Origin: a virus
Lineage: Duplodnaviria > Heunggongvirae > Uroviricota > Caudoviricetes
Reading direction: 5' to 3' (one strand)
Length of the DNA: 64,000 bases
Virus record (IMG/VR): IMGVR_UViG_3300042465_005697
Location: 28,280 to 92,279 of that record
This document shows, piece after piece, positions 2,942 to 28,893 of this stretch; the stretch's first letter is position 1, and the number at the start of each line of letters is the position of its first letter. The position numbers and the translations under genes were made by a program. The notes below the pieces were generated by a model. That model did not search any database. It was not told the DNA's origin and saw only the letters and a list, made by a program, of their open reading frames with translations.

Positions 2942-5161
2942 ATGAAGAATTTAATTTTAACCTTACTGATGGTACTAATATCATCAACATCATTTACACA
3001 ATATTGCCCATATCTTGGGGTAGATCAAATATTACCTTGTGGGGTAGGTTCCACCACACTAACGGCAGATTTAAGTCAATGTGGTCCTGGAGGACCTAAC
3101 CCAAATCAAACCACAAACTATGGAATAACAAATATACCTTATGTTGCACAAACTAATACTGGAACGAGCATATCTATGACTGACGATTCGCAGCAAGGTC
3201 CGTTTAACATAGGGTTTAATTTTTGTTTTTTTGGAACAACATACACACAATTTTATATTGGGTCTAATGGTTGGGTTTCTTTTACAGGTGGACAACCCAC
3301 AACATTTACCTCACAAACAATACCAACTGGAAATGCATTAGTTCCTAAGAATTGTATTATGGGTCCGTGGCAAGATTGGCATCCAGGATTAGGAGGTCAA
3401 ATTAAATATCAAATGTCAGGGATTGCACCTTGTAGAAAATTAACCGTTAGTTGGATTGGGGTTCCAATGTTCTCTTGTACAAGTAATCAAGGAACATTTC
3501 ACATTGTCATATACGAATCAACAAATATTATAGAAAATCACATACAAAATAAACCATCTTGTGTGAATTGGCAAGGGGGAACTGCGGTTGAGGGAATTCA
3601 TAATGCCGCAGGGACAATAGGAATTACTGTTCCGGGGAGAAACTCAACTGCTTGGGTGACGAATAACGACTCTTGGAGATGGACACCATCAGGACCTGTG
3701 GTAACACCAACATTAACTTGGTATCAAGTGGGTAATCCAACACCAATTGGAACTGGACCAACGATTACTGTAACACCACCAGCGGCAGGTGCTAACTATA
3801 CGTGTCATTTTGTTTACCCAATTTGTAATGCCGGGTGGTCTACTTGTAATGTTGTTGGTGGGTTAGGTCCCGACACAGTTTTTGTTTCTCCTGGTCCTCC
3901 TAACATCCAAACCACAATATCATCATTCACAGAACCTCTTTGTTATTTAGATTGTGATGGTACTGCAACTGTAACCCCAATTAATGGTGGACCAATCTAT
4001 AATTATTTATGGTCTAACGGGCAAACATCACAAACATCCGTAAATTTATGTGCCGGCACTTATAATGTTGTTGTAACTGACAATAATGGGTGTACTGGTA
4101 ATTCTTCTATTACAATAAACCAACCAACTCAACTTTTATTTGATACTTTAATTGGAATTGACGTTACTTGTAATGAAAATGATGGATCTGTAATTATTGA
4201 AGGTGTTGGAGGAACACAACCTTACAATTATTTAATTGATAATGTAATATCAAACGACACTATCAATGGATTAAGTGGTGGAAACTATTTAATTTCCATT
4301 CAAGACATTAATGGGTGTCAGGTAGATTCAAATATCAACTTAACTTTCCCAATACCGGTAACACCATCATTAATTCCGTTGGATACTGTTAATTGCGTCC
4401 CTGGTGACTTCATATTTACCAACTTATCAACACCAATTGGTAATGTTGTTAGTTCATACATACAATTTGGTGATAATACGGATACAACTATACTATTAAA
4501 CAATGGTTTTACCCACATATATGACTCAGTTGGGATGTGGGACATCACTATGTCGGTAACATCTGACTATGGGTGTGTGTATGCCCAAACTTTTACCAAT
4601 ATTGTTGAAACAAAACCATTACCTACCGCACAATTTAATATATCACCTAACCCAACAACGTTTTTTGAGGTTACGGTGATGGTACAGGATCAATCATATA
4701 GTAATATTGTTGATTGGTGGTGGTATGCACCTGATGCAACACCAACATTAAGTATAACTAACAACCCAACATTCACATTCCCAGAAGGAATCGTTGGTCA
4801 ATACCCAATATACCTTGTGGTTACGGATAATCTTGGGTGTACAGACACAACATCAAGAATTTTAACCGTTTTAAGTGATGTGTTATCGTTCATACCTAAC
4901 ACATTTACACCTGATGGTGATGAATATAACCAAGATTGGGGTTTTAACTTTGATGGTATTGATGAAACAGGGTTTAGTTTGTATGTTTTTAACCGTTGGG
5001 GAGAGATTGTTTGGGAAACTCACGACTCACACGAGAAATGGGACGGAACATATGGTGGAAAGATCGTTTCAGAAGGTATGTACGTGTGGAAATCAGAGTT
5101 TGGTGTTATTAATACCGATGAAAGACGAACAATAAACGGAATTGTAAACGTTATAAGATGA
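2942..5161 (+). CDS. secreted Cys/Thr-rich repeat protein with PKD-like domain and T9SS type-B C-terminal sorting domain (gliding-motility-associated CTD)
   Basis: Signal peptide MKNLILTLLMVLISSTSF; repeated C..G.T / CxxxDGxxT modules; PKD-like segment; C-terminus FIPNxFTPDGDxxNQDWGF...YVFNRWGEIVWE..W.G matches the CHU_C/T9SS type-B CTD family; terminator downstream. Confidence 0.7.
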   Translation: MKNLILTLLMVLISSTSFTQYCPYLGVDQILPCGVGSTTLTADLSQCGPGGPNPNQTTNYGITNIPYVAQTNTGTSISMTDDSQQGPFNIGFNFCFFGTTYTQFYIGSNGWVSFTGGQPTTFTSQTIPTGNALVPKNCIMGPWQDWHPGLGGQIKYQMSGIAPCRKLTVSWIGVPMFSCTSNQGTFHIVIYESTNIIENHIQNKPSCVNWQGGTAVEGIHNAAGTIGITVPGRNSTAWVTNNDSWRWTPSGPVVTPTLTWYQVGNPTPIGTGPTITVTPPAAGANYTCHFVYPICNAGWSTCNVVGGLGPDTVFVSPGPPNIQTTISSFTEPLCYLDCDGTATVTPINGGPIYNYLWSNGQTSQTSVNLCAGTYNVVVTDNNGCTGNSSITINQPTQLLFDTLIGIDVTCNENDGSVIIEGVGGTQPYNYLIDNVISNDTINGLSGGNYLISIQDINGCQVDSNINLTFPIPVTPSLIPLDTVNCVPGDFIFTNLSTPIGNVVSSYIQFGDNTDTTILLNNGFTHIYDSVGMWDITMSVTSDYGCVYAQTFTNIVETKPLPTAQFNISPNPTTFFEVTVMVQDQSYSNIVDWWWYAPDATPTLSITNNPTFTFPEGIVGQYPIYLVVTDNLGCTDTTSRILTVLSDVLSFIPNTFTPDGDEYNQDWGFNFDGIDETGFSLYVFNRWGEIVWETHDSHEKWDGTYGGKIVSEGMYVWKSEFGVINTDERRTINGIVNVIR

Positions 5162-16784: not shown

Positions 16785-18689
16785 ATGAAAAAAAACATTA
16801 TTTTAGAATTAGACAGAATAAAATCTTTAATGAAGATTATTGTTGAACAGGGTAGTGCCGACATCAATATTGATAGAATGGCACAAGACCAACTTGTGGA
16901 TGCTCCGGATAGTTTTGGACCTATGGATCAATATAATACAATTAAAATTGGTGAAGGAACTAAATACCCAGTTATTTATCCTGATTATAATACTATAATT
17001 ATGGGGGATCCTGACCCCCATTTAAAACAAGCAGTAGGTAATATCAGTGCATCTAATTTTATTAAAGATGTTAAAATTGATGATAATGGTGAGGAATATA
17101 TTATAAAAAACGGTAAAAAATATTGTTTACCAACAAAAACATCAGGATTTTGGAAACTTCTTTCAAATGGTAAATTTGTTTACCAATTTAGTAATCCTAA
17201 AAATGGTCTTATCTTCTCAATGTTTATAACCCCTAAACCATCGGTTACGTTACCAATGTTAAATTCTGACGGTGTTCCTGTAGATGAAACAATGACTGGT
17301 GTGGAAGCGGCAATAAGATGTGCAGGTGGAGATAATGGTTGGGGTTTCCATTATAAAGATGGTAATCTTTTTTGGGGTAAAGATGGTAAATCATATGATC
17401 CTACTAACCCCGAACATTTTGACAATAGATCAACATTTGATGAATGGTGGGATAAATGGGGTTTAGTGGTTGAAGTTGTTATTGGTTTGGCAGCGGCATT
17501 TACAGGTGCAGGATTGGCGGCATTTCTTGTTGAGGCTGGTATTGTTGAAGGGGCATTTGCAACTGCGTATGTTGGAGGAAGTAGTGAAACCATTTTATCT
17601 GTTGTGTTACAAGCGGGAGTTGAGGCGGGTCTTATGGCACCTATAGCAAAATATCAATGGGATAGAGGTAAAGAAAGTGATGCAATATTATCAATAGCAT
17701 TTTGTTTCTTACCTTTTTTAACAGAATTAGGGTCAGTTCAAAAATATATTAAGGGTGGAATATCTCCGAACACTACCAAATCATTATCGGAAAAATTTCT
17801 ATCTAATGGTGGATCTTCAGGAATATACGCATCTAAAGAAGCTTACGAATCATATTTAGAGTCTTTAACAGGTACTGAATTGGGATTATGGAAAGCCACG
17901 GTAGAGCAACTATCAACAAAACAAGGGGCTGACCAATATAAAGAAACATTAAAAGGGTATTTAATAAAAAATCAAAGTAAAATAAATAATACAATATTAG
18001 ACCATAAAGTTTGGGTGGACCAAATGGATGATCTAACCGCAGGTCAATTTAGTAAAAAAGTTTTAAACCAAAACATAATAACAGGTAAAGGGGCTATTGC
18101 GCAACTATTAAGAATTGGTATTCCAATTGCTGGTGTTGCAATTGGGTTTACCCAAATATATAATAAACTTAAATCTATGGGGTATAATGATACCCAAATT
18201 GAGAAGATCTCAAATAAATTAGAAACTTCATTAAATAATAGTGAATATTTTAAAGGGTTAATTAAAATTGATTCTGAATTATATCAGAAATTAGTTGAGG
18301 AGTTAATACGAACTAAAATATTATCAGATAAAAAAATACCGGATAGCATATTACAAAATTCTATGAGTGATCCTGAACTTAATAATTTAGTTGAACAAAG
18401 TGCAATTAAATTAATAAAGGAACGTCCTGAATATTCTGAAGTTTTTGATATACCAATAGATGTTACACAAGAAGAAATATTAACACTTTTTAAAAAGAGA
18501 ATATTAAAACATCTTAAGGTTAATGGACATGAAAATATTAAATTTACGGATGAAGTTCCATTTAAAACTTACAATTTTACGTCCAATAAAACACAAAACG
18601 GGGTTGTTACGGTAAAAGTGCCGACATATTTTAAAACAGATTTGGATGTTTTAAAATATGATATGTCTGGTTTAGAAATTACGGAATAA
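16785..18689 (+). CDS. large hypothetical protein with central Gly/Ala-rich hydrophobic (TM-like) region
   Basis: 634 aa; N-term MKKNIILELDRIKSLMKIIVE motif; segment VVEVVIGLAAAFTGAGLAAFLVEAGIVEGAFATAYVGG. Confidence 0.55.
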   Translation: MKKNIILELDRIKSLMKIIVEQGSADINIDRMAQDQLVDAPDSFGPMDQYNTIKIGEGTKYPVIYPDYNTIIMGDPDPHLKQAVGNISASNFIKDVKIDDNGEEYIIKNGKKYCLPTKTSGFWKLLSNGKFVYQFSNPKNGLIFSMFITPKPSVTLPMLNSDGVPVDETMTGVEAAIRCAGGDNGWGFHYKDGNLFWGKDGKSYDPTNPEHFDNRSTFDEWWDKWGLVVEVVIGLAAAFTGAGLAAFLVEAGIVEGAFATAYVGGSSETILSVVLQAGVEAGLMAPIAKYQWDRGKESDAILSIAFCFLPFLTELGSVQKYIKGGISPNTTKSLSEKFLSNGGSSGIYASKEAYESYLESLTGTELGLWKATVEQLSTKQGADQYKETLKGYLIKNQSKINNTILDHKVWVDQMDDLTAGQFSKKVLNQNIITGKGAIAQLLRIGIPIAGVAIGFTQIYNKLKSMGYNDTQIEKISNKLETSLNNSEYFKGLIKIDSELYQKLVEELIRTKILSDKKIPDSILQNSMSDPELNNLVEQSAIKLIKERPEYSEVFDIPIDVTQEEILTLFKKRILKHLKVNGHENIKFTDEVPFKTYNFTSNKTQNGVVTVKVPTYFKTDLDVLKYDMSGLEITE

Positions 18690-24003: not shown

Positions 24004-24076
24004 GGTCCCATGATGTAATTGGATAACATATTTCTCTTCTAAAGAAATCTTTCAGGTTCGAACCCTGATGGGACTA
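24004..24076 (+). tRNA. tRNA-Arg(TCT)
   Basis: Hand-folded cloverleaf: acceptor ggtccca/tgggact, anticodon loop cttctaa, T-arm tcagg-ttcgaac-cctga. Confidence 0.75.
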
Positions 24077-24140
24077 CTATTTTTTTTAGGTTTTGGTTCG
24101 TTTTTGTCAATTGTTGATATTTATAATAAAGAGGTATAAT

Positions 24141-24746
24141 ATGGGTATTGACGAAAAATATAAAAAAGAAGATCTTGAAAGATTAATTTTTATTGAAAAC
24201 AAATCTTATCGGGAAATAGGAAGGATCTATTCTGTTAGTGATACATACATAAAAAAAATTGCTAATAAATTAGGTATTTCTTTAAGGAAACGAAAAGAAC
24301 AACCTGAAGGATTTAAACCACATAACACCGGAAAGGCAAAAAAAATTAATTGCCAACAATGTGAAAAAGAATTAACACCTTATTCAAAACATCAAAAATT
24401 TTGTTCTATGGAATGTGGTGTTAATTATAAGGTTTTTAAGAAATATGAATCATATCTTGAAAACCAAAAAGATTATTGTCACACCAACGATATGAGATTT
24501 GTTAAAAAACACATATTAAATGATCAAAACAATAAATGTTTAATTTGTGACATTGATAATAAATGGAATGGTAAATCATTAATCTTTATTTTAGATCATA
24601 TCGATGGTAACGCATCAAATAATTTTAGAATTAACTTAAGATTAATATGTCATAATTGTGATTCACAATTAGAAACTTATAAGTCAAAAAATAAAAATTC
24701 CGCAAGAAAAGAAAGATATTTAAAAAATTATAAAAACAATGGATGA
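24141..24746 (+). CDS. HNH homing endonuclease-like protein
   Basis: Cys-rich zinc-binding segments and HNH-like motif ...DHIDGNASNN...NLRLICHNCD; sits inside the tRNA island. Confidence 0.6.
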   Translation: MGIDEKYKKEDLERLIFIENKSYREIGRIYSVSDTYIKKIANKLGISLRKRKEQPEGFKPHNTGKAKKINCQQCEKELTPYSKHQKFCSMECGVNYKVFKKYESYLENQKDYCHTNDMRFVKKHILNDQNNKCLICDIDNKWNGKSLIFILDHIDGNASNNFRINLRLICHNCDSQLETYKSKNKNSARKERYLKNYKNNG

Positions 24747-24859
24747 AACATTAGAAGAGATGCACATTGAGTTTATTAACTCCGAAGAATATTGTGTCTT
24801 ATTACAGAGATTTAGAGACGAAGAAGAGGAAAGATATTCAACAAAATAAAAAATAATAC

Positions 24860-24889
24860 TTGTCAAATGAAAAAGTTTGACTATATTTG
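24860..24889 (+). promoter_or_regulatory. Bacteroidota-type promoter (TTG-N19-TATATTTG)
   Basis: Consensus match. Confidence 0.4.
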
Positions 24890-25081
24890 TACCATAATTA
24901 AGATTTTAACAAAAAACGATATATTTATAACAAGATGAAAACAACACAGAAACATATGAGCTTTAATTCCCCGTGTAATAATTGGGTCAAGTCGTATAGT
25001 ACGCTAATTCGCGTATCTCGGTGTCTTTCATTAAATTTTATGGTATAACGTATCATCATAATATAACCACAAATGGATTGA

Positions 25082-25114
25082 CCCGAGATTTTTAAAGAGA
25101 TCTCGGGTTTTTTC
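25082..25114 (+). terminator. intrinsic terminator (cccgagat...atctcggg + T6)
   Basis: 8-bp stem followed by TTTTTT, immediately 5' of the tRNA-Thr gene. Confidence 0.55.
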
Positions 25115-25122
25115 GTTTATAA

Positions 25123-25195
25123 GCTTTCTTAACTCAGTTGGTAGAGTGCTTCACTTGTAATGAAGATGTCATCGGTTCGACTCCGGTAGAAAGCT
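25123..25195 (+). tRNA. tRNA-Thr(TGT)
   Basis: Acceptor gctttct/agaaagc, D-stem actc/gagt, anticodon loop cttgtaa, T-arm atcgg-ttcgact-ccggt. Confidence 0.8.
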
Positions 25196-25233
25196 CAGAA
25201 CAAATGTTCTTTGACATATTGGCAAATTTAAAT

Positions 25234-25304
25234 TCTCTCCTCGTCTAGCGGCAGGACCCTTGGTTTTGGGCCAAGTGACCGAGGTTCGAATCCTTGGGAG
25301 AGAT
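25234..25304 (+). tRNA. tRNA-Gln(TTG)
   Basis: U1-A72 start typical of bacterial tRNA-Gln; anticodon loop ttttggg; T-arm cgagg-ttcgaat-ccttg. Confidence 0.75.
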
Positions 25305-25309
25305 CATAA

Positions 25310-25393
25310 GGAAGTTTAATTAATCTGGCGATTAACCTAGTCTTGAAAACTAGTGGTACCGAAAGGTATGGGGATCGATACCTCAGGCTTCCT
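25310..25393 (+). tRNA. tRNA-Ser(TGA), type II
   Basis: GGAAGTT acceptor (cf. E. coli Ser GGAAGTG); anticodon loop cttgaaa; long variable arm tacc-gaaa-ggta; atypical T-loop atcgata. Confidence 0.65.
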
Positions 25394-25460
25394 CTAACTA
25401 ACACAGAGTTGAATGATACGAGCCTGTAAAGTTCGAAAGGAGTCATGGTGTTGGTTTTTA

Positions 25461-25537
25461 ACGAGTAGTAGAGGAGTCTGGTTTATCTCGGGCCGTTTGG
25501 GGCGGTCAGCACGTTGGTTCAAATCCAACCTATTCGA
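25461..25537 (+). tRNA. tRNA-Pro(TGG)
   Basis: C1-G72 start; anticodon loop tttgggg; T-arm gttgg-ttcaaat-ccaac. Confidence 0.75.
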
Positions 25538-25606
25538 CTAAATAAATAAACAATTAAAAACAAGTATCATGGAAAGTGACAAGAGCGACAAGAGTCGCAA
25601 ACAGAA

Positions 25607-25677
25607 TCCCTCGAAGCTTTAAAGTGAAGCTTTCCGCTTTTAACGGAAAGAAGTCGGAGCGTTACCGTCCGGGGGAA
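25607..25677 (+). tRNA. tRNA-Lys(TTT)-like, atypical (no GG in D-loop, non-canonical T-loop); possible pseudo-tRNA
   Basis: 7-bp acceptor tccctcg/cggggga, D-stem gctt/aagc, perfect anticodon arm ttccg-cttttaa-cggaa identical to bacterial Lys loop, weak T-arm gtcgg-agcgtta-ccgtc. Confidence 0.3.
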
Positions 25678-25832
25678 CAAAAAAATTCAGATTAATACCT
25701 GAATATCAAAATAAAGTATTAACTTTGTGGTATGGTGTTGGTCTTAAATCCCAGTAGGAAGACACACTTAAATAAAACACACAATGGGGAAAGTGTCGAC
25801 TTAAGAAACGGCAAGTATCAACGAAGGGACAC

Positions 25833-25905
25833 GCACCTTTAGCTCAGTTGGTAGAGCGTTGCTTTTACATAGCAAATGTCATAGGTTCGAATCCTATAGG
25901 GTGTA
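25833..25905 (+). tRNA. tRNA-Val(TAC)
   Basis: D-arm gctc-agttggtag-agc, anticodon loop tttacat, T-arm atagg-ttcgaat-cctat; acceptor has two G-U pairs. Confidence 0.7.
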
Positions 25906-25915
25906 CAAAAAATTG

Positions 25916-25988
25916 GGGAGTATCGGCAGGGTCCTGATCGTGTCTGTAAAACATCGTCTTGGTGGTTCGATTCCATCTGCTCCCACCA
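25916..25988 (+). tRNA. short atypical tRNA-like gene with genomically encoded 3' ACCA; possible anticodon GTA (Tyr) but D/anticodon arms irregular
   Basis: Acceptor gggagta/tgctccc, T-arm ggtgg-ttcgatt-ccatc, then a-cca; only a 4-bp anticodon-like stem gtgt/acat around loop ctgtaaa. Confidence 0.3.
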
Positions 25989-25994
25989 AAAAAA

Positions 25995-26067
25995 GGAACA
26001 GTATCTTAATTGGTGAAGAATTTGACTGTTAATCAAAAGATTGTAGGTTCGAGTCCTGCCTGTTCCG
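25995..26067 (+). tRNA. tRNA-Asn(GTT)
   Basis: Acceptor ggaacag/ctgttcc, anticodon arm tttga-ctgttaa-tcaaa. Confidence 0.8.
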
Positions 26068-26073
26068 CAATAT

Positions 26074-26147
26074 ATTCATGTAGCTCAGTTGGTTAGAGCG
26101 TCTCGCTGATACCGAGAAGGTCATAGGTTCAAATCCTATCTTGAATA
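26074..26147 (+). tRNA. tRNA-Ile(GAT)
   Basis: A1 start as in bacterial Ile; D-arm gctc-agttggttag-agc; anticodon arm tctcg-ctgatac-cgaga. Confidence 0.75.
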
Positions 26148-26205
26148 CAAAAAGGGGAATAAATAGTGTGGGTGCCCCAACTACTGCAGTAGTACCACAC
26201 TCAAT

Positions 26206-26294
26206 GGAAAGAAATCCCTGAAGGCGACGGGACCTACCTGCTAAGTAGTGTGACCGGTGAGAATCCGGTTGTGGATCGTTACCACTTCTTTCCT
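26206..26294 (+). tRNA. tRNA-Ser(GCT), type II
   Basis: Acceptor ggaaaga/tctttcc perfect; anticodon loop ctgctaa; variable arm accgg-tgagaat-ccggt; T-loop atcgtta. Confidence 0.7.
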
Positions 26295-26300
26295 CAATAT

Positions 26301-26371
26301 GCCGAGTGGTCTGGGACCGAGGTTGGTTCATATCCGACCTTAGAGTGGATCGTTACCATTACTCGGTACCA
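26301..26371 (+). tRNA. short (68 nt + CCA) tRNA-Met/Ile2(CAT)-like with reduced D-arm and encoded CCA
   Basis: Acceptor gccgagt/actcggt, anticodon arm gttgg-ttcatat-ccgac, T-arm agtgg-atcgtta-ccatt then a-cca; D-arm only ~11 nt. Confidence 0.45.
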
Positions 26372-26548
26372 AGAAGATTGGTGTAATCGTTAGTTAGGGT
26401 GAACAGTTCATTACTTTGAAACTACTATGTAACATATTCTGAAGATAGTGTTTAATTACGTAAACGGACACGAAAATAGGAATGTGGGTCAACAACATAC
26501 CATACGTGGAGTGTGGAGTTCCAAAATCGGGGATCTTTGATATTAAAT

Positions 26549-26622
26549 GGTGTTTGTAGCTCAATCGGAAGAGTGTCGGTTTGTGGAACCGAAGGTAGTG
26601 GGATCGAAACCCACCATTCACC
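26549..26622 (+). tRNA. tRNA-His(GTG) with G-1
   Basis: Extra 5' G opposite discriminator C; anticodon arm tcggt-ttgtgga-accga; T-arm gtggg-atcgaaa-cccac; two U-U mismatches in acceptor. Confidence 0.6.
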
Positions 26623-26628
26623 CAAATT

Positions 26629-26701
26629 GCCCACATAGTTCAACTGAACAGAATACCCGACTACGGATCGGGAGATAGGAGTTTGAATCTCTTTGAGGGT
26701 A
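26629..26701 (+). tRNA. tRNA-Arg(ACG)
   Basis: Anticodon arm cccga-ctacgga-tcggg (cf. E. coli ctacgaa); D-stem gttc/gaat; T-arm aggag-tttgaat-ctctt. Confidence 0.7.
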
Positions 26702-26765
26702 CAATAAACTAAAATTTGCTTAATAAACAAGGTTAGTTTATTGAGCAAAAACAGGTTTATCATTT

Positions 26766-26839
26766 ACGTCTGTAGCTCCAATTGGTAGAGCATTGGATTC
26801 CAAATCCGAGTGTTGGTGGTTCGAATCCATCCAGGCGTG
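26766..26839 (+). tRNA. tRNA-Trp(CCA)
   Basis: A1 start; D-arm gctc-caattggtag-agc; anticodon loop ttccaaa; T-arm ggtgg-ttcgaat-ccatc. Confidence 0.8.
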
Positions 26840-26948
26840 CATAGGACGGGAGGCAAGTGTTGGGGGTACAACCGTTAGGATACCCCAACCGAGTCCTCCC
26901 CGAAGAAATTAAATTTTGCCAATTAAAAAAGTTTTTGTATCTTTACAG

Positions 26949-27444
26949 TATGAAAGAAGGATTACCATACTGTACGACAAAAGAAGCGATTAAGGGATAT
27001 GAAGAGTCTACAATTGCAAAAAGAGAGACCAATGATTGTGTTGTGAGAGCATTTGCATCTTGTTTTGATTTACCTTACAATAGGGCTCACGAATACGTTA
27101 AAGTAAACTTTGGACGTAGGGATCGTAACGGCACTTATGGTACTGTAAATAGAATGGGTGAACTTGCAAAAAAAGGAACTCAAGTAAACTATAAAAAAGT
27201 TAAATGTGTTGGTATACTAAATGAATATCATAAACATACGTTGGAGTATACTGTTAAAGTGAAGGGAGAAAGAGTTAACCGTAAAATGACTGTTGGTACT
27301 TTTACAAAACAAAACCCTGTTGGAACATTCTTCATTCTTGTTTCAAGACACGCCTTCACGATTAAAGATGGTGTTGTTATTGGTAATTGGGATGATGCGG
27401 TAAAAAAGAAACGTATTATAAAACATGCGTTTGAGGTTAAATAA
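26949..27444 (+). CDS. hypothetical protein embedded in tRNA cluster
   Basis: Likely start MKEGLPYCTTKEAIKGYEE within ORF 26857..27444; stop abuts tRNA-Phe. Confidence 0.45.
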
Positions 27445-27517
27445 GGACAGGTAGCTCAGTTGGTAGAGCACCACATTGAAGATGTGGGTGTCGGAGGTTC
27501 GATTCCCTCTCTGTCCA
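27445..27517 (+). tRNA. tRNA-Phe(GAA)
   Basis: ggacagg...cctgtcc acceptor, anticodon arm ccaca-ttgaaga-tgtgg, T-arm ggagg-ttcgatt-ccctc. Confidence 0.85.
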
Positions 27518-27523
27518 CAAAAT

Positions 27524-27593
27524 GCTCAAGTTGATCGTGGTGGTCGGTTAGTCTGCAAAACTAATGGTGTAAGTTCGATTCTTACCTTGAGCT
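27524..27593 (+). tRNA. tRNA-Cys(GCA)
   Basis: Perfect acceptor gctcaag/cttgagc; anticodon arm ttagt-ctgcaaa-actaa; T-arm gtaag-ttcgatt-cttac. Confidence 0.7.
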
Positions 27594-27602
27594 CAATAAA
27601 AT

Positions 27603-27684
27603 GCCCGAGTGGAGGAATTGGTAGTCTCGTCAGATTTAGGATCTGATTACTTCGGTAGTGTGGGTTCGAGTCCCACCTTGGGTA
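27603..27684 (+). tRNA. tRNA-Leu(TAG), type II
   Basis: D-arm gagg-aattggtag-tctc, anticodon arm tcaga-tttagga-tctga, variable hairpin tac-ttcg-gta, T-arm gtggg-ttcgagt-cccac. Confidence 0.8.
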
Positions 27685-27762
27685 CAAATAATACAATAAT
27701 TAACATAAAAATATTTGGTTTATTAAATAAGAGTAAGTATCTTTGATAAAAATAAATAAATT

Positions 27763-28247: not shown

Positions 28248-28788
28248 AATATTACCCCTGCTCGAAGTAAACAAATAACTGGTGTGTAATCCGCCCTGTA
28301 TATAGGTACAGAAACTAAATGAAGTTAGAATCCATAACCAAGAGTGGAGTTGTTTGTAGAGAGATAATATCTGTGAGGTCGTACTCTGGTTAAATTATTC
28401 AGCAACTTGGGCTGACAGGGTATGTTATTAAAACTAAGGAAATAGGCAGCTAGAACTGTCACAGGCTCACAAGAGAAAGTAGTATAATGTAGTACGCCTT
28501 AGTTTTATTAAATGTGTTGTTCATGTGAGGTATGAAGGTAATACTAATAAATTGTACAATAAGTGATGGGTACACAACACTGAGGTTCTCAACCTCAACT
28601 ATTAAAACCAATCCGGTTAAAGGATAAACACCAGCCGGCCCCGATTTGCGGTGAGTAATCACTTTAGGGATAAAACTTTAGGTGCGTGTAGGGATATTGG
28701 GAGCCCTACAAAAAATACCGATGGGGTCCTAAGATAGAAATATTGAAAAAGACATGCAAGACCTCGTGAAAGTAAAGGCGTCGGTATT

Positions 28789-28893
28789 GGTCAGGTGGCG
28801 GAATGGTAGACGTTATAGGGGCGATGATTAAGTGGTTAGGATTGTAAGACTTCCTCGAATAACCACATACAGGTTCGAATCCTGTCCTGACTA
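28789..28893 (+). ncRNA. tRNA-like module U1 (type-II-like D-arm GCGGAATGGTAGACG, long internal hairpins, canonical T-arm+acceptor); not a standard cloverleaf
   Basis: 5' GGTCAGGTG + ... + ACAGGTTCGAATCCTGTCCTGACTAC 3'; no 5-7-5 anticodon arm found. Confidence 0.5.

Follow-up and report, generated by a model that had tools for sequence, protein, structure and literature searches.

The three divergent tRNA genes

The DNA analysed here, called the window, is the whole 64,000-nucleotide (nt) stretch spanning positions 28,280 to 92,279 of IMG/VR record IMGVR_UViG_3300042465_005697, a virus of the class Caudoviricetes. It has a G+C content of 32% and is part of a large T4-like phage, as shown by its genes for a portal protein (250.6 bits) and a large terminase, both of T4 type, and for a prohead protease. 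ARAGORN finds 25 transfer RNA (tRNA) genes in it, all on the plus strand and within window positions 16942-36988, and 18 of them crowd into 24004-27685. Three genes in this crowded stretch depart from the usual tRNA plan: a tRNA-Lys(UUU) with altered core nucleotides, a compact tRNA-Tyr(GUA) and a compact tRNA with the anticodon CAU, termed short Met. Judged by sequence comparison, the three belong to widespread, poorly annotated families of structurally divergent tRNAs.

ARAGORN calls these genes as tRNA-Lys(ttt) at 25607-25678, tRNA-Tyr(gta) at 25916-25988 and tRNA-Met(cat) at 26301-26371, and made zero calls in dinucleotide shuffles (30 of the whole window and 200 of the cluster region). 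A preliminary description of this DNA, made from the letters alone, had placed three non-canonical tRNA genes here and had named ARAGORN as a check; the positions hold, as do most of the structural details given for the Lys, Tyr and Met arms, the length of the Tyr anticodon stem excepted.

All three genes have a 7-base-pair (bp) acceptor stem, a 7-nt anticodon loop with U33 and a single discriminator base. The T-stem of each has 5 bp, a closing G53-C61 pair and a 7-nt loop, and the stems are supported by covariation. The canonical core (U8-A14, G18-G19, U54-U55-C56 and A58) is not common to the set, being altered in Lys and short Met; Tyr keeps GG and a TTCGA T-loop, with a D-stem of 3 bp. Because the altered core nucleotides covary, the tertiary contacts have probably been re-formed rather than lost.

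T-loops with A at position 54 occur in five genes of the window, not in three as first counted: Ser-tga (ATCGATA), Ser-gct and short Met (both ATCGTTA), His (ATCGAAA) and Lys (AGCGTTA). The T-arms of Ser-gct and short Met do share a direct repeat, the 14-nt GTGGATCGTTACCA, which begins at 26271 and 26345 rather than at 26272 and 26347.

Lys(UUU): a full cloverleaf with an altered core

The tRNA-Lys(UUU) gene (25607-25677, plus strand), delimited by ARAGORN, Rfam and family alignment A2, runs for 71 nt to discriminator A73. No CCA is encoded, the next bases being CAAAA. The segment 25614-25626, read from the sequence, holds A8-A9, the 5ʹ strand of the D-stem (GCTT) and the D-loop TAAAGTG, which has U14, AG in the usual place of G18-G19, no GG and a final G instead of A21. 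The anticodon loop called by ARAGORN is CTTTTAA (25637-25643, anticodon TTT at 25639-25641), and the T-loop AGCGTTA (25658-25664), again read directly, supplies A54, G55, C56 and U58.

Homologues were sought with the pattern CTTTTAA-N14-AGCGTTACC, which imposes the constancy of the anticodon loop and T-loop. At least 119 viral contigs matched; a complete cloverleaf is present in 88 of the matches listed, giving 49 distinct sequences. In alignment A2, which holds 42 distinct 71-nt members, 99.0% of cells are paired and 20 of the 22 pairs show changes on both sides, with a covariation score of 0.869 versus 0.207 for shuffles. When the 3ʹ partners are slid as a control, pairing falls to 36-50%. 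Amid these freely varying stems, A9, the D-loop TAAAGTG, a 4-nt variable region and A73 are near-fixed; the anticodon loop CTTTTAA is found in all 42 members, as the search pattern required. Position 8 and the first D-loop base covary, being A-U in 34 sequences and U-A in 8, and the last D-loop base follows them, with G (34 sequences) accompanying A8/U14 and A (8 sequences) accompanying U8/A14.

The Lys gene is a full-size cloverleaf with altered tertiary-core nucleotides and not a minimised tRNA. Its A18.G55 combination, with G19-C56 retained, would give the elbow and core of the tRNA a different construction. The identical Lys sequence is present in three related contigs (L069, L082 and L165; contigs and other loci are given here by L number), and a search with the window Lys alone against GenBank phages gave no match.

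Compact Tyr(GUA)

The compact tRNA-Tyr(GUA) gene, defined by ARAGORN and alignment A4, occupies 25916-25988 (plus strand), with 70 nt to A73 (25985) followed by an encoded CCA at 25986-25988. It has a G1-C72 acceptor (GGGAGTA...TGCTCCC-A), a canonical T-loop (TTCGATT) and a 3-nt variable region. Comparison with homologues resolves the segment 25923-25936 into a 4-nt linker, TCGG, and a mini D hairpin, CAG-GGTC-CTG. The anticodon arm at 25937-25957, as drawn from A4, is extended (ATCGTGT / CTGTAAA / ACATCGT, anticodon GTA at 25946-25948). The loop CTGTAAA and its anticodon are as first described; the stem, described as having only 4 bp, instead comprises seven positions, including a C.C mismatch and an outermost pair that covaries.

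Among the six distinct viral Tyr sequences of A4, 94.7% of cells are paired and four pairs show changes on both sides. The outermost pair of the anticodon stem is A-U, C-G or G-C among homologues, and the C.C mismatch at the fifth position of the stem is invariant. Identical copies of the window gene are found in L022, L043, L048 and L052. D-loop length varies (GGT, GGC, GGTC, GGTTT, and 8 nt in the 76-nt L180), with the CAG/CTG stem kept; L180 was misaligned by MAFFT, and was excluded from the A4 pair count and compared by eye. An alternative D hairpin, GRC-AGG-GTY, was set aside on the indirect grounds that the length changes fall within the CAG/CTG loop and that L180 keeps CAG/CTG.

A metagenome scan added at least 73 distinct GUA tRNAs, mostly of 68-75 nt. 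Among the matches listed, some are ordinary archaeal type-I tRNA-Tyr with C1-G72, and many are compact with G1-C72 and A73. Other compact Tyr lineages carry unrelated hairpins in the same place (TTC-AGG-GAA, GGCA-AGG-TGCC and GGTA-AGG-TACC), and in metagenome variants of the window Tyr subfamily the C.C mismatch persists, with G-C/G-C replacing U.G/A-U at the two outer pairs. The window gene has the bacterial tRNA-Tyr identity set (A73, U35 within GUA, and G1-C72) and lacks the long type-II variable arm of bacterial tRNA-Tyr.

The short CAU tRNA

The compact tRNA(CAU), delimited by ARAGORN, covariance model R1 and alignment A5, lies at 26301-26371 (plus strand), with 68 nt to A73 (26368) and an encoded CCA at 26369-26371. 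Its D hairpin, GGTC-TGG-GACC, is 11 nt long (26308-26318); positions 8-9 are absent, and no linker separates the hairpin from the acceptor or anticodon stem. An 8-bp anticodon stem follows at 26319-26341, with the loop TTCATAT and the anticodon CAT at 26329-26331; both it and the hairpin are drawn from A5. The T-loop read from the sequence at 26349-26355, ATCGTTA (A54...U58), falls within the 14-nt repeat.

Pairing is complete (100%) in six close homologues, five of whose pairs have changed on both sides. Model R1, built from these six, recovered more divergent 70-nt members, for a total of 11 distinct sequences. The resulting alignment A5 has 96.6% paired cells, and both partners have changed in 16 of its 24 pairs; within the D hairpin, pairing reaches 100% and three of the four pairs carry compensatory changes, and both-side changes affect six of the eight anticodon-stem pairs around a loop that reads YTCATAT in 11 of 11. 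Members of the family have a 7-bp acceptor that passes without a linker into a hairpin of 11-13 nt with GG in its loop; an anticodon stem of 7-8 bp, a variable region of 2-3 nt, a T-arm and A73 follow. At positions 54/58, the window gene and L017 have A...T, and the remaining nine sequences have T...A (TTCGATA, TTCGAAC).

Both compact tRNAs have 10 nt between the anticodon loop and the T-stem, as canonical tRNAs do. Judging from this preserved spacing, the added pairs of the anticodon stem would involve the equivalents of positions 26-44 and 25-45.

An initiator role for the short CAU tRNA is unlikely, as it has neither a 1x72 mismatch nor three consecutive G-C pairs in the anticodon stem. It may, more tentatively, be not a Met tRNA but a tRNA-Ile2 that would read AUA once its C34 has been modified to lysidine. 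Unmodified CAU confers Met identity and lysidine switches it to Ile (PMC9976931). Consistent with the Ile2 assignment, AUA is frequent (24 per 1000 codons), a second, canonical CAU tRNA lies at 36914-36988, the anticodon stem is without the three G-C pairs of an initiator, and the sole Ile(UAU) call of the window (16942-17028) lies inside an open reading frame (ORF) and looks spurious. Against it, L035 has both the short CAU tRNA and a separate Ile(tat) gene.

The ARAGORN call just mentioned, an 87-nt tRNA-Ile(tat) on the plus strand, is probably a false positive: it is contained in a 634-amino-acid ORF (16785-18689), its fold is poor and Rfam gives it no support.

Encoded CCA and 3ʹ ends

The preliminary description had singled out the two shortest genes as the only ones with an encoded CCA, and a check of the 24 credible tRNAs agrees: the discriminator is followed by CA in 20, by CT in four, and by CCA only in compact Tyr and short Met. 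The homologues, however, mostly lack CCA and end in CAA, CTA, CGA or ACT. The encoded CCA of the window therefore looks incidental, and its candidacy as a meaningful family trait was rejected. Across the window, the bases after the discriminator that begin with CA usually read CAA or CAT; discriminator plus CA could be a shared 3ʹ-processing or partial-CCA signature.

Synteny and exchange of alleles

Related contigs were recovered from IMG/VR by DNA-pattern and protein-anchored searches. A 15-mer pattern, GGTTCATATCCGACC, returned 20 loci, only two of them real relatives, and blastn of the whole cluster against GenBank phages gave scattered single-tRNA matches only and no close relative. In the relatives, the array order is Arg-Thr-Gln-(Ser)-Pro-Lys-Val-Tyr-Asn-Ile-(Ser)-(short Met)-His-Arg-Trp-Phe-Cys-Leu.

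The same slots hold different alleles in different relatives. An ordinary Lys with a TTCGA-type T-loop fills the Lys slot of L017, L025, L034, L037, L041, L042, L045 and L048, and A54 variants fill that of L022 (ATCAGTA) and of L035 and L052 (ATCGTAA). At the Tyr slot, an 82-86 nt type-II Tyr is found in L017, L025, L034, L035, L037, L041, L042 and L045, and the 70-nt form in L022, L043, L046, L048, L052 and L054. The two slots assort independently: L048 combines a canonical Lys with the short Tyr, and L035 an A54 Lys with the long Tyr. The proposal that the odd genes fill apparent Lys and Tyr gaps is thereby supported, since they occupy the slots of the relatives' ordinary Lys and type-II Tyr.

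Divergence within a slot is out of step with that of its flanks. In L022, the closest relative, the flanks are 92-98% identical to the window and the 47-nt spacer upstream of Lys is identical, yet its Lys matches the window Lys at only 43 of 72 positions (60%). Conversely, L069, L082 and L165 carry the identical Lys gene between flanks that are 70-91% identical to the window. The slot alleles have evidently been exchanged by recombination.

Nuclease-like ORFs lie among these arrays. The window array contains a zinc-finger/HNH-like ORF (24093-24746, plus strand), and a DUF559/MTES_1575 nuclease with a C2H2 finger is encoded at 32898-33830 (minus strand). In relatives, endonuclease-like ORFs sit elsewhere in the array, at about 1408-790 (minus strand) in L017 and at about 2170-2800 in L022, where the ORF displaces Ile-gat. 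Such shifting endonuclease ORFs fit mosaicism driven by homing endonucleases, and the arrays recall the endonuclease-driven inheritance of the T4 tRNA region, at least as that work is cited in PMC8421152.

Spread of the altered core beyond the window

The core changes of the Lys gene recur together in other tRNAs. In a survey of 1148 distinct ARAGORN tRNAs from all fetched loci, a sample biased by the fetching although most came along in flanks, the D-loop of the 179 G55 tRNAs has AG without GG in 141 and GG in 7, whereas U55 tRNAs have GG in 478 and AG only in 12. Positions 54/58 are T/A in 596 and A/T in 72, and positions 8/14 are T/A in 481 and A/T in 39. The window Lys carries all three swaps (8/14, D-loop AG with G55, and 54/58). 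In viral loci, G55-type tRNAs of many isoacceptors amount to 36 distinct sequences.

A stricter Lys pattern found 44 loci in bacterial genomes, mostly of Verrucomicrobiota, some of these on megabase contigs and one on a 4.26-megabase chromosome. CCA is encoded in most of the bacterial Lys-type copies, and the copies examined sit in dense arrays of 15-16 tRNAs in about 4 kilobases (kb), with U54-G55 or A54-G55 T-loops. Chromosomal array loci of Verrucomicrobiota include L206 (1257-4956), L186 (4324-7919) and L183 (2331-3026). Every tRNA of the L206 array encodes CCA and has G at T-loop position 55. In most tRNAs of the Verrucomicrobiota arrays, AG or AC stands in place of the D-loop GG, and these arrays also hold tRNA-Leu of just 75-77 nt, a type-I length, and Ile(tat) genes of 92 nt. 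On the distribution of its matches, the Lys type is placed in a mobile pool of array tRNAs, to be compared with the L-arrays treated in the passages searched of PMC8421152 and PMC4758250.

Cultured phages in GenBank carry related altered-core scaffolds as well, mostly unannotated. Streptomyces phage Warpy has the scaffold annotated as tRNA-His, but 13 further Streptomyces phage records leave it without annotation; in Synechococcus phage BUCT-ZZ01, a Lys(UUU) lies partly beneath an annotated 'hypothetical protein', and Pseudomonas phage ventosus has a degenerate copy with a poor acceptor stem. GenBank scaffold copies are found at L177 1493-1566, L176 about 1496-1570 and L178 1501-1571.

It is conceivable, though doubtful enough to be offered as a conjecture, that the Lys gene is a member of an unrecognised, horizontally mobile class of tRNAs whose core changes have come as one package (A8-U14(-G21), A18.G55 alongside a retained G19-C56, and often A54-U58), a class represented by many isoacceptors both in Verrucomicrobiota arrays and in phages whose hosts are unrelated. 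Together with compact Tyr and CAU, it might then form a 'shadow' set that is poorly seen by annotation models, and likewise by host enzymes and defence nucleases whose recognition depends on the canonical elbow, D-arm or long variable arm.

Function and alternative explanations

The best explanation, held at roughly 80%, is that the Lys, Tyr and CAU genes are working but structurally divergent tRNA genes of a T4-like phage, each the sole gene for its anticodon slot, which would be charged and would decode in the infected cell and may owe their shapes to host defence. They are conserved and under structural constraint, stand at syntenic positions in place of canonical Lys, Tyr and CAU genes, and carry the expected identity nucleotides; they are judged functional rather than decayed because their helices are held by compensatory changes in phage homologues and they occupy the same slots. 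Of the two options that the preliminary description left standing, functional minimised tRNAs or pseudo-tRNAs, the functional one is favoured, with the qualification that 'minimised' does not suit the full-size Lys.

In the proposed scheme, three tertiary contacts of Lys would be re-paired together: A8-U14 would replace U8-A14, A54-U58 would replace U54-A58, and A18-G19 with G55-C56 would replace G18-G19 with U55-C56. In compact Tyr and CAU, a D hairpin of 3-4 bp would keep GG in its loop, and the anticodon stem would reach 7-8 positions by recruiting nucleotides that ordinary tRNAs assign to the 3ʹ strand of the D-stem and to the variable loop. The three tRNAs would be transcribed and processed with the array transcript, and host enzymes would add or complete CCA, as expected from its absence in most homologues. 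Host lysyl-, tyrosyl- and methionyl-tRNA synthetases would charge them by recognising the anticodon and A73 and, in Tyr, also G1-C72; isoleucyl-tRNA synthetase, acting after lysidine modification, is the alternative for CAU. The corresponding elements are present (UUU and A73 for Lys; GUA, A73 and G1-C72 for Tyr; CAU and A73) and agree with the Lys, Tyr and Met identity elements of Giege and Eriani (PMC9976931). The charged tRNAs would supply codons that are frequent in the 14 long ORFs counted (per 1000: AAA 72, TAT 31, ATG 29 and ATA 24). The likeliest reason for the persistence of the odd bodies and for their swapping among phages, put forward as a hypothesis, is that they stay usable when defence nucleases attack host Lys, Tyr or Met tRNAs.

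Several observations could instead be taken as marks of decay. Hallmark nucleotides are missing (no GG or T-Psi-C in Lys, truncated D-arms in the compact genes), Rfam scores are low or absent, the Lys T-stem contains U.U and the Tyr anticodon stem C.C, and the copy in phage ventosus shows that degenerate members with a poor acceptor exist. That the genes are decaying pseudo-tRNAs, remnants of once-canonical genes, is nevertheless very improbable: compensatory changes keep the helices in dozens of homologues that have diverged, the anticodon loops and A73 never vary, an identical Lys persists where the flanks have fallen to 70-91% identity, and the C.C mismatch is itself conserved, unlike a product of decay. 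The array, which otherwise covers the code, offers no second gene for Lys or Tyr; none was found in the window by ARAGORN, by its intron mode, at a lowered ARAGORN threshold or with the Rfam tRNA model. A role without decoding, as tRNA-like punctuation for processing by RNase P and RNase Z or as decoys, is suggested by the tightly packed same-strand array, by the failure of the general tRNA model to recognise short Met and by other conserved structured spacers in the array, such as 26149-26205. Punctuation, however, needs no invariant 7-nt anticodon loop with U33, no right anticodon and no A73, and the same anticodon is retained when a slot allele is replaced by an unrelated sequence, so that this role too has little to recommend it. 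A less remote alternative grants that the genes work and sees in their bodies only neutral drift in AT-rich phage genomes, with no adaptive meaning or link to defence. The low G+C content of the window, the shrinkage of mitochondrial tRNAs under mutation pressure (PMC7609411) and the canonical alleles used by many phages of the same lineage all speak for drift, which remains a minority view in the face of three points: the D- and T-loop motifs of Lys are near-invariant across 42 sequences whose stems are free to vary, the same motif is kept in GC-rich Verrucomicrobiota arrays, and a coordinated change of three tertiary contacts points to a selected alternative design and not to erosion.

The preferred reading, of functional tRNAs whose shapes may serve against defence, also has evidence to answer. 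The Rfam tRNA model (RF00005, gathering threshold 29 bits) missed all three genes both at that threshold and in a permissive scan of 2.1 kb. When inputs of about 85 nt, for which the speed filters are lax, were rescored, Lys reached 35.8 bits on the short input and was missed on longer ones; Tyr reached 24.8 bits, under the threshold and with its D-arm skipped as a deletion; and short Met gave no match even at E<=10 on an 81-nt input. A covariance-model check had been proposed at the outset, with scores below noise and no homologous tRNA at syntenic positions as grounds for dismissal. For short Met only the first half came true: Rfam finds nothing, yet syntenic homologues are plentiful, and the model alone would have discarded a gene that is backed by other evidence. 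The U.U mismatch in the window Lys T-stem counts on the same side, as does the CAG/CTG D-stem of Tyr, which never varies within the close family and is thus without direct covariation support. The fetching bias weakens the survey counts, and the presence of the Lys type in Verrucomicrobiota chromosomal arrays means that it is not specific to phages and may have another purpose. As for defence, the resistance of T5 tRNA-Lys to PARIS maps to the anticodon stem-loop and not to the elbow (PMC11464382), and evasion of retron-Eco7 appears to depend on dosage (PMC11555353). Because known resistance lies in the anticodon stem-loop or in dosage, the defence rationale for altered cores is circumstantial.

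Comparison with known systems

Several defence nucleases, namely PrrC, the AriB nuclease of PARIS and the bacterial Schlafen RorSlfn5, cleave tRNA-Lys(UUU); Met(CAU) and Ile(CAU) are also targets of RorSlfn5, and retron-Eco7 depletes tRNA-Tyr (PMC11464382, PMC11555353, PMC13056530, PMC10264068). Phages counter with tRNAs of their own: T5 tRNA-Lys acts against PARIS (PMC11464382), tRNA-Tyr of T5 and SP15 against retron-Eco7, and tRNA-Lys of T1 and T7 against PrrC (PMC11555353), and T5 tRNAs rescue infection in the PARIS and retron-Eco7 cases (PMC11464382, PMC11555353). The window genes resemble these in being phage Lys(UUU) and Tyr(GUA) genes in tRNA-rich regions, of nuclease-attacked isoacceptors and with sequences unlike those of the host; the anticodons of Lys(UUU), Tyr(GUA) and CAU all match a targeted host tRNA. 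Nuclease evasion is a plausible candidate reason for the odd shapes. The known defence-evading tRNAs differ in being canonical cloverleaves that rely on anticodon stem-loop substitutions (anticodon-loop variants in PMC10264068) or on overexpression, whereas the window genes have ordinary anticodon loops (CTTTTAA, CTGTAAA and TTCATAT) and differ in the D/T elbow, D-arm and variable region.

In architecture, the two compact tRNAs come closest to tRNA-Pyl and mammalian mitochondrial tRNA-Ser(UCN), which have a 0-1 nt linker between acceptor and D-arm, a 3-5 nt D-loop, an anticodon stem of more than 5 bp and a variable region of about 3 nt, and still form an L-shape (PMC7609411, Krahn, Fischer & Soll 2020). 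Short Met agrees on all four points (0 nt, 3 nt, 8 bp and 2 nt). Tyr agrees on three (a 4-nt D-loop, seven stem positions with C.C, and 3 nt), its 4-nt linker being too long. Like mitochondrial tRNA-Ser(UCN), both keep the D-loop GG, and Tyr keeps a TTCGA T-loop. They are set apart by their anticodons (GUA and CAU rather than CUA and UGA), their setting in a phage of bacteria, their longer stems of 7-8 positions, the linker and conserved C.C mismatch of Tyr, and the lack of an evident dedicated synthetase or of sequence homology. The resemblance is one of architecture only, not of membership.

The L-arrays, as far as they are presented in the searched passages of PMC8421152 and PMC4758250, are likewise dense same-strand tRNA arrays with homing-endonuclease genes nearby that are spread among phages and bacteria; the window array has its HNH-like ORF, and the Lys type sits in arrays of this kind in Verrucomicrobiota. 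Unlike them, the window array is that of a phage and most of its members are canonical, and the same passages make no mention of T-loops or D-loops that would describe an altered tertiary core. Natural A at position 54 in place of U is known from eukaryotic initiator tRNA-Met, whose T-loop has A54 and A60, with A54 paired to A58 (PMC7912444); in the window, by contrast, A54 goes with U58, a swap of U54-A58, and in Lys it is joined by G55 and A8-U14. Reviews of non-canonical tRNAs and of T-loop conservation report A54 for eukaryotic initiators only, and mention neither G55 nor phages. No description of A18/G55, of compact phage Tyr or Met, or of D-arm-reduced phage tRNAs was found in the literature, where coverage was incomplete and the silence is absence of evidence only.

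Significance of alternative tRNA bodies

U55 (as pseudouridine-55), G18 and U54-A58 are deemed near-universal in cytosolic tRNAs. A family kept by covariation in which all of them are replaced together would show that nature has a second workable tRNA elbow, and bacterial-type Tyr and CAU tRNAs with mitochondria-like compact cores would likewise show a workable alternative. Since the Rfam tRNA model filters out or under-scores such genes, and most matching GenBank phage records leave them unannotated, phage tRNA repertoires and apparently 'missing' Lys, Tyr and Met genes may be mis-estimated. The independent swaps of slot alleles among close relatives amount to a natural experiment on tRNA body shape versus tRNA-cleaving defence, and the engineering of orthogonal tRNAs could draw on the compact or rewired bodies as candidate scaffolds.

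Other features of the array and the window

Some other members of the array also escape the Rfam tRNA model on long inputs, namely Ser-tga (25310-25394), Pro-tgg (25462-25538) and Ser-gct (26206-26295). Ser-tga instead scores 44 bits with the selenocysteine tRNA model, and its L017 copy differs by one compensatory D-stem pair, U-A to G-C. A lowered ARAGORN threshold revealed no further convincing tRNAs in the array spacers. One spacer, at 26149-26205 between Ile-gat and Ser-gct, is conserved and contains interleaved complements (GGGG...GTGTGG...CCCC...CCACAC) that predict a pseudoknot. An Rfam search with it gave no match; in L034 and L037, its inner palindrome has undergone a compensatory change, from ACTACTGCAGTAGT to GGAACTGCAGTCC.

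Downstream of the crowded stretch lie two paralogous tRNA-model matches of 105-108 nt, at 28789-28893 (plus strand, 35.3 bits) and 36745-36852 (plus strand, 36.5 bits). They share the acceptor GGTCAGG/CCTGACT, a Leu-like D-arm, a canonical T-arm and an over-long middle section, and ARAGORN calls them only with its intron option, giving introns of 22-27 nt and dubious anticodons. With their anticodons uncertain, they are not clearly suppliers of Lys or Tyr. In relatives, a 91-nt 'tRNA-?(ctta)' with an 8-nt anticodon loop lies directly 5ʹ of a Met gene, a position like that of the second match in the window.

Elsewhere in the window, a 739-amino-acid protein encoded at 2942-5161 (plus strand), perhaps a surface protein or adhesin-like protein carried by the phage, contains SprB repeats, PKD domains and a sorting domain for type-IX secretion (CHU_C). 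Judging from these domains, the host is probably a member of the Bacteroidota. A full-length GOLLD RNA is found at 41960-42367 (plus strand, 321.6 bits), and a homologue of this region is present in L069 and L052. About 1 kb downstream of GOLLD, on the opposite strand, a transfer-messenger RNA (tmRNA) match at 43234-43457 (minus strand, 49.7 bits against a threshold of 47) overlaps by 27 nt, at its 3ʹ end, a group I intron match at 43431-43824 (minus strand, 94.7 bits). The two could be a phage tmRNA gene that is interrupted or followed by an intron.

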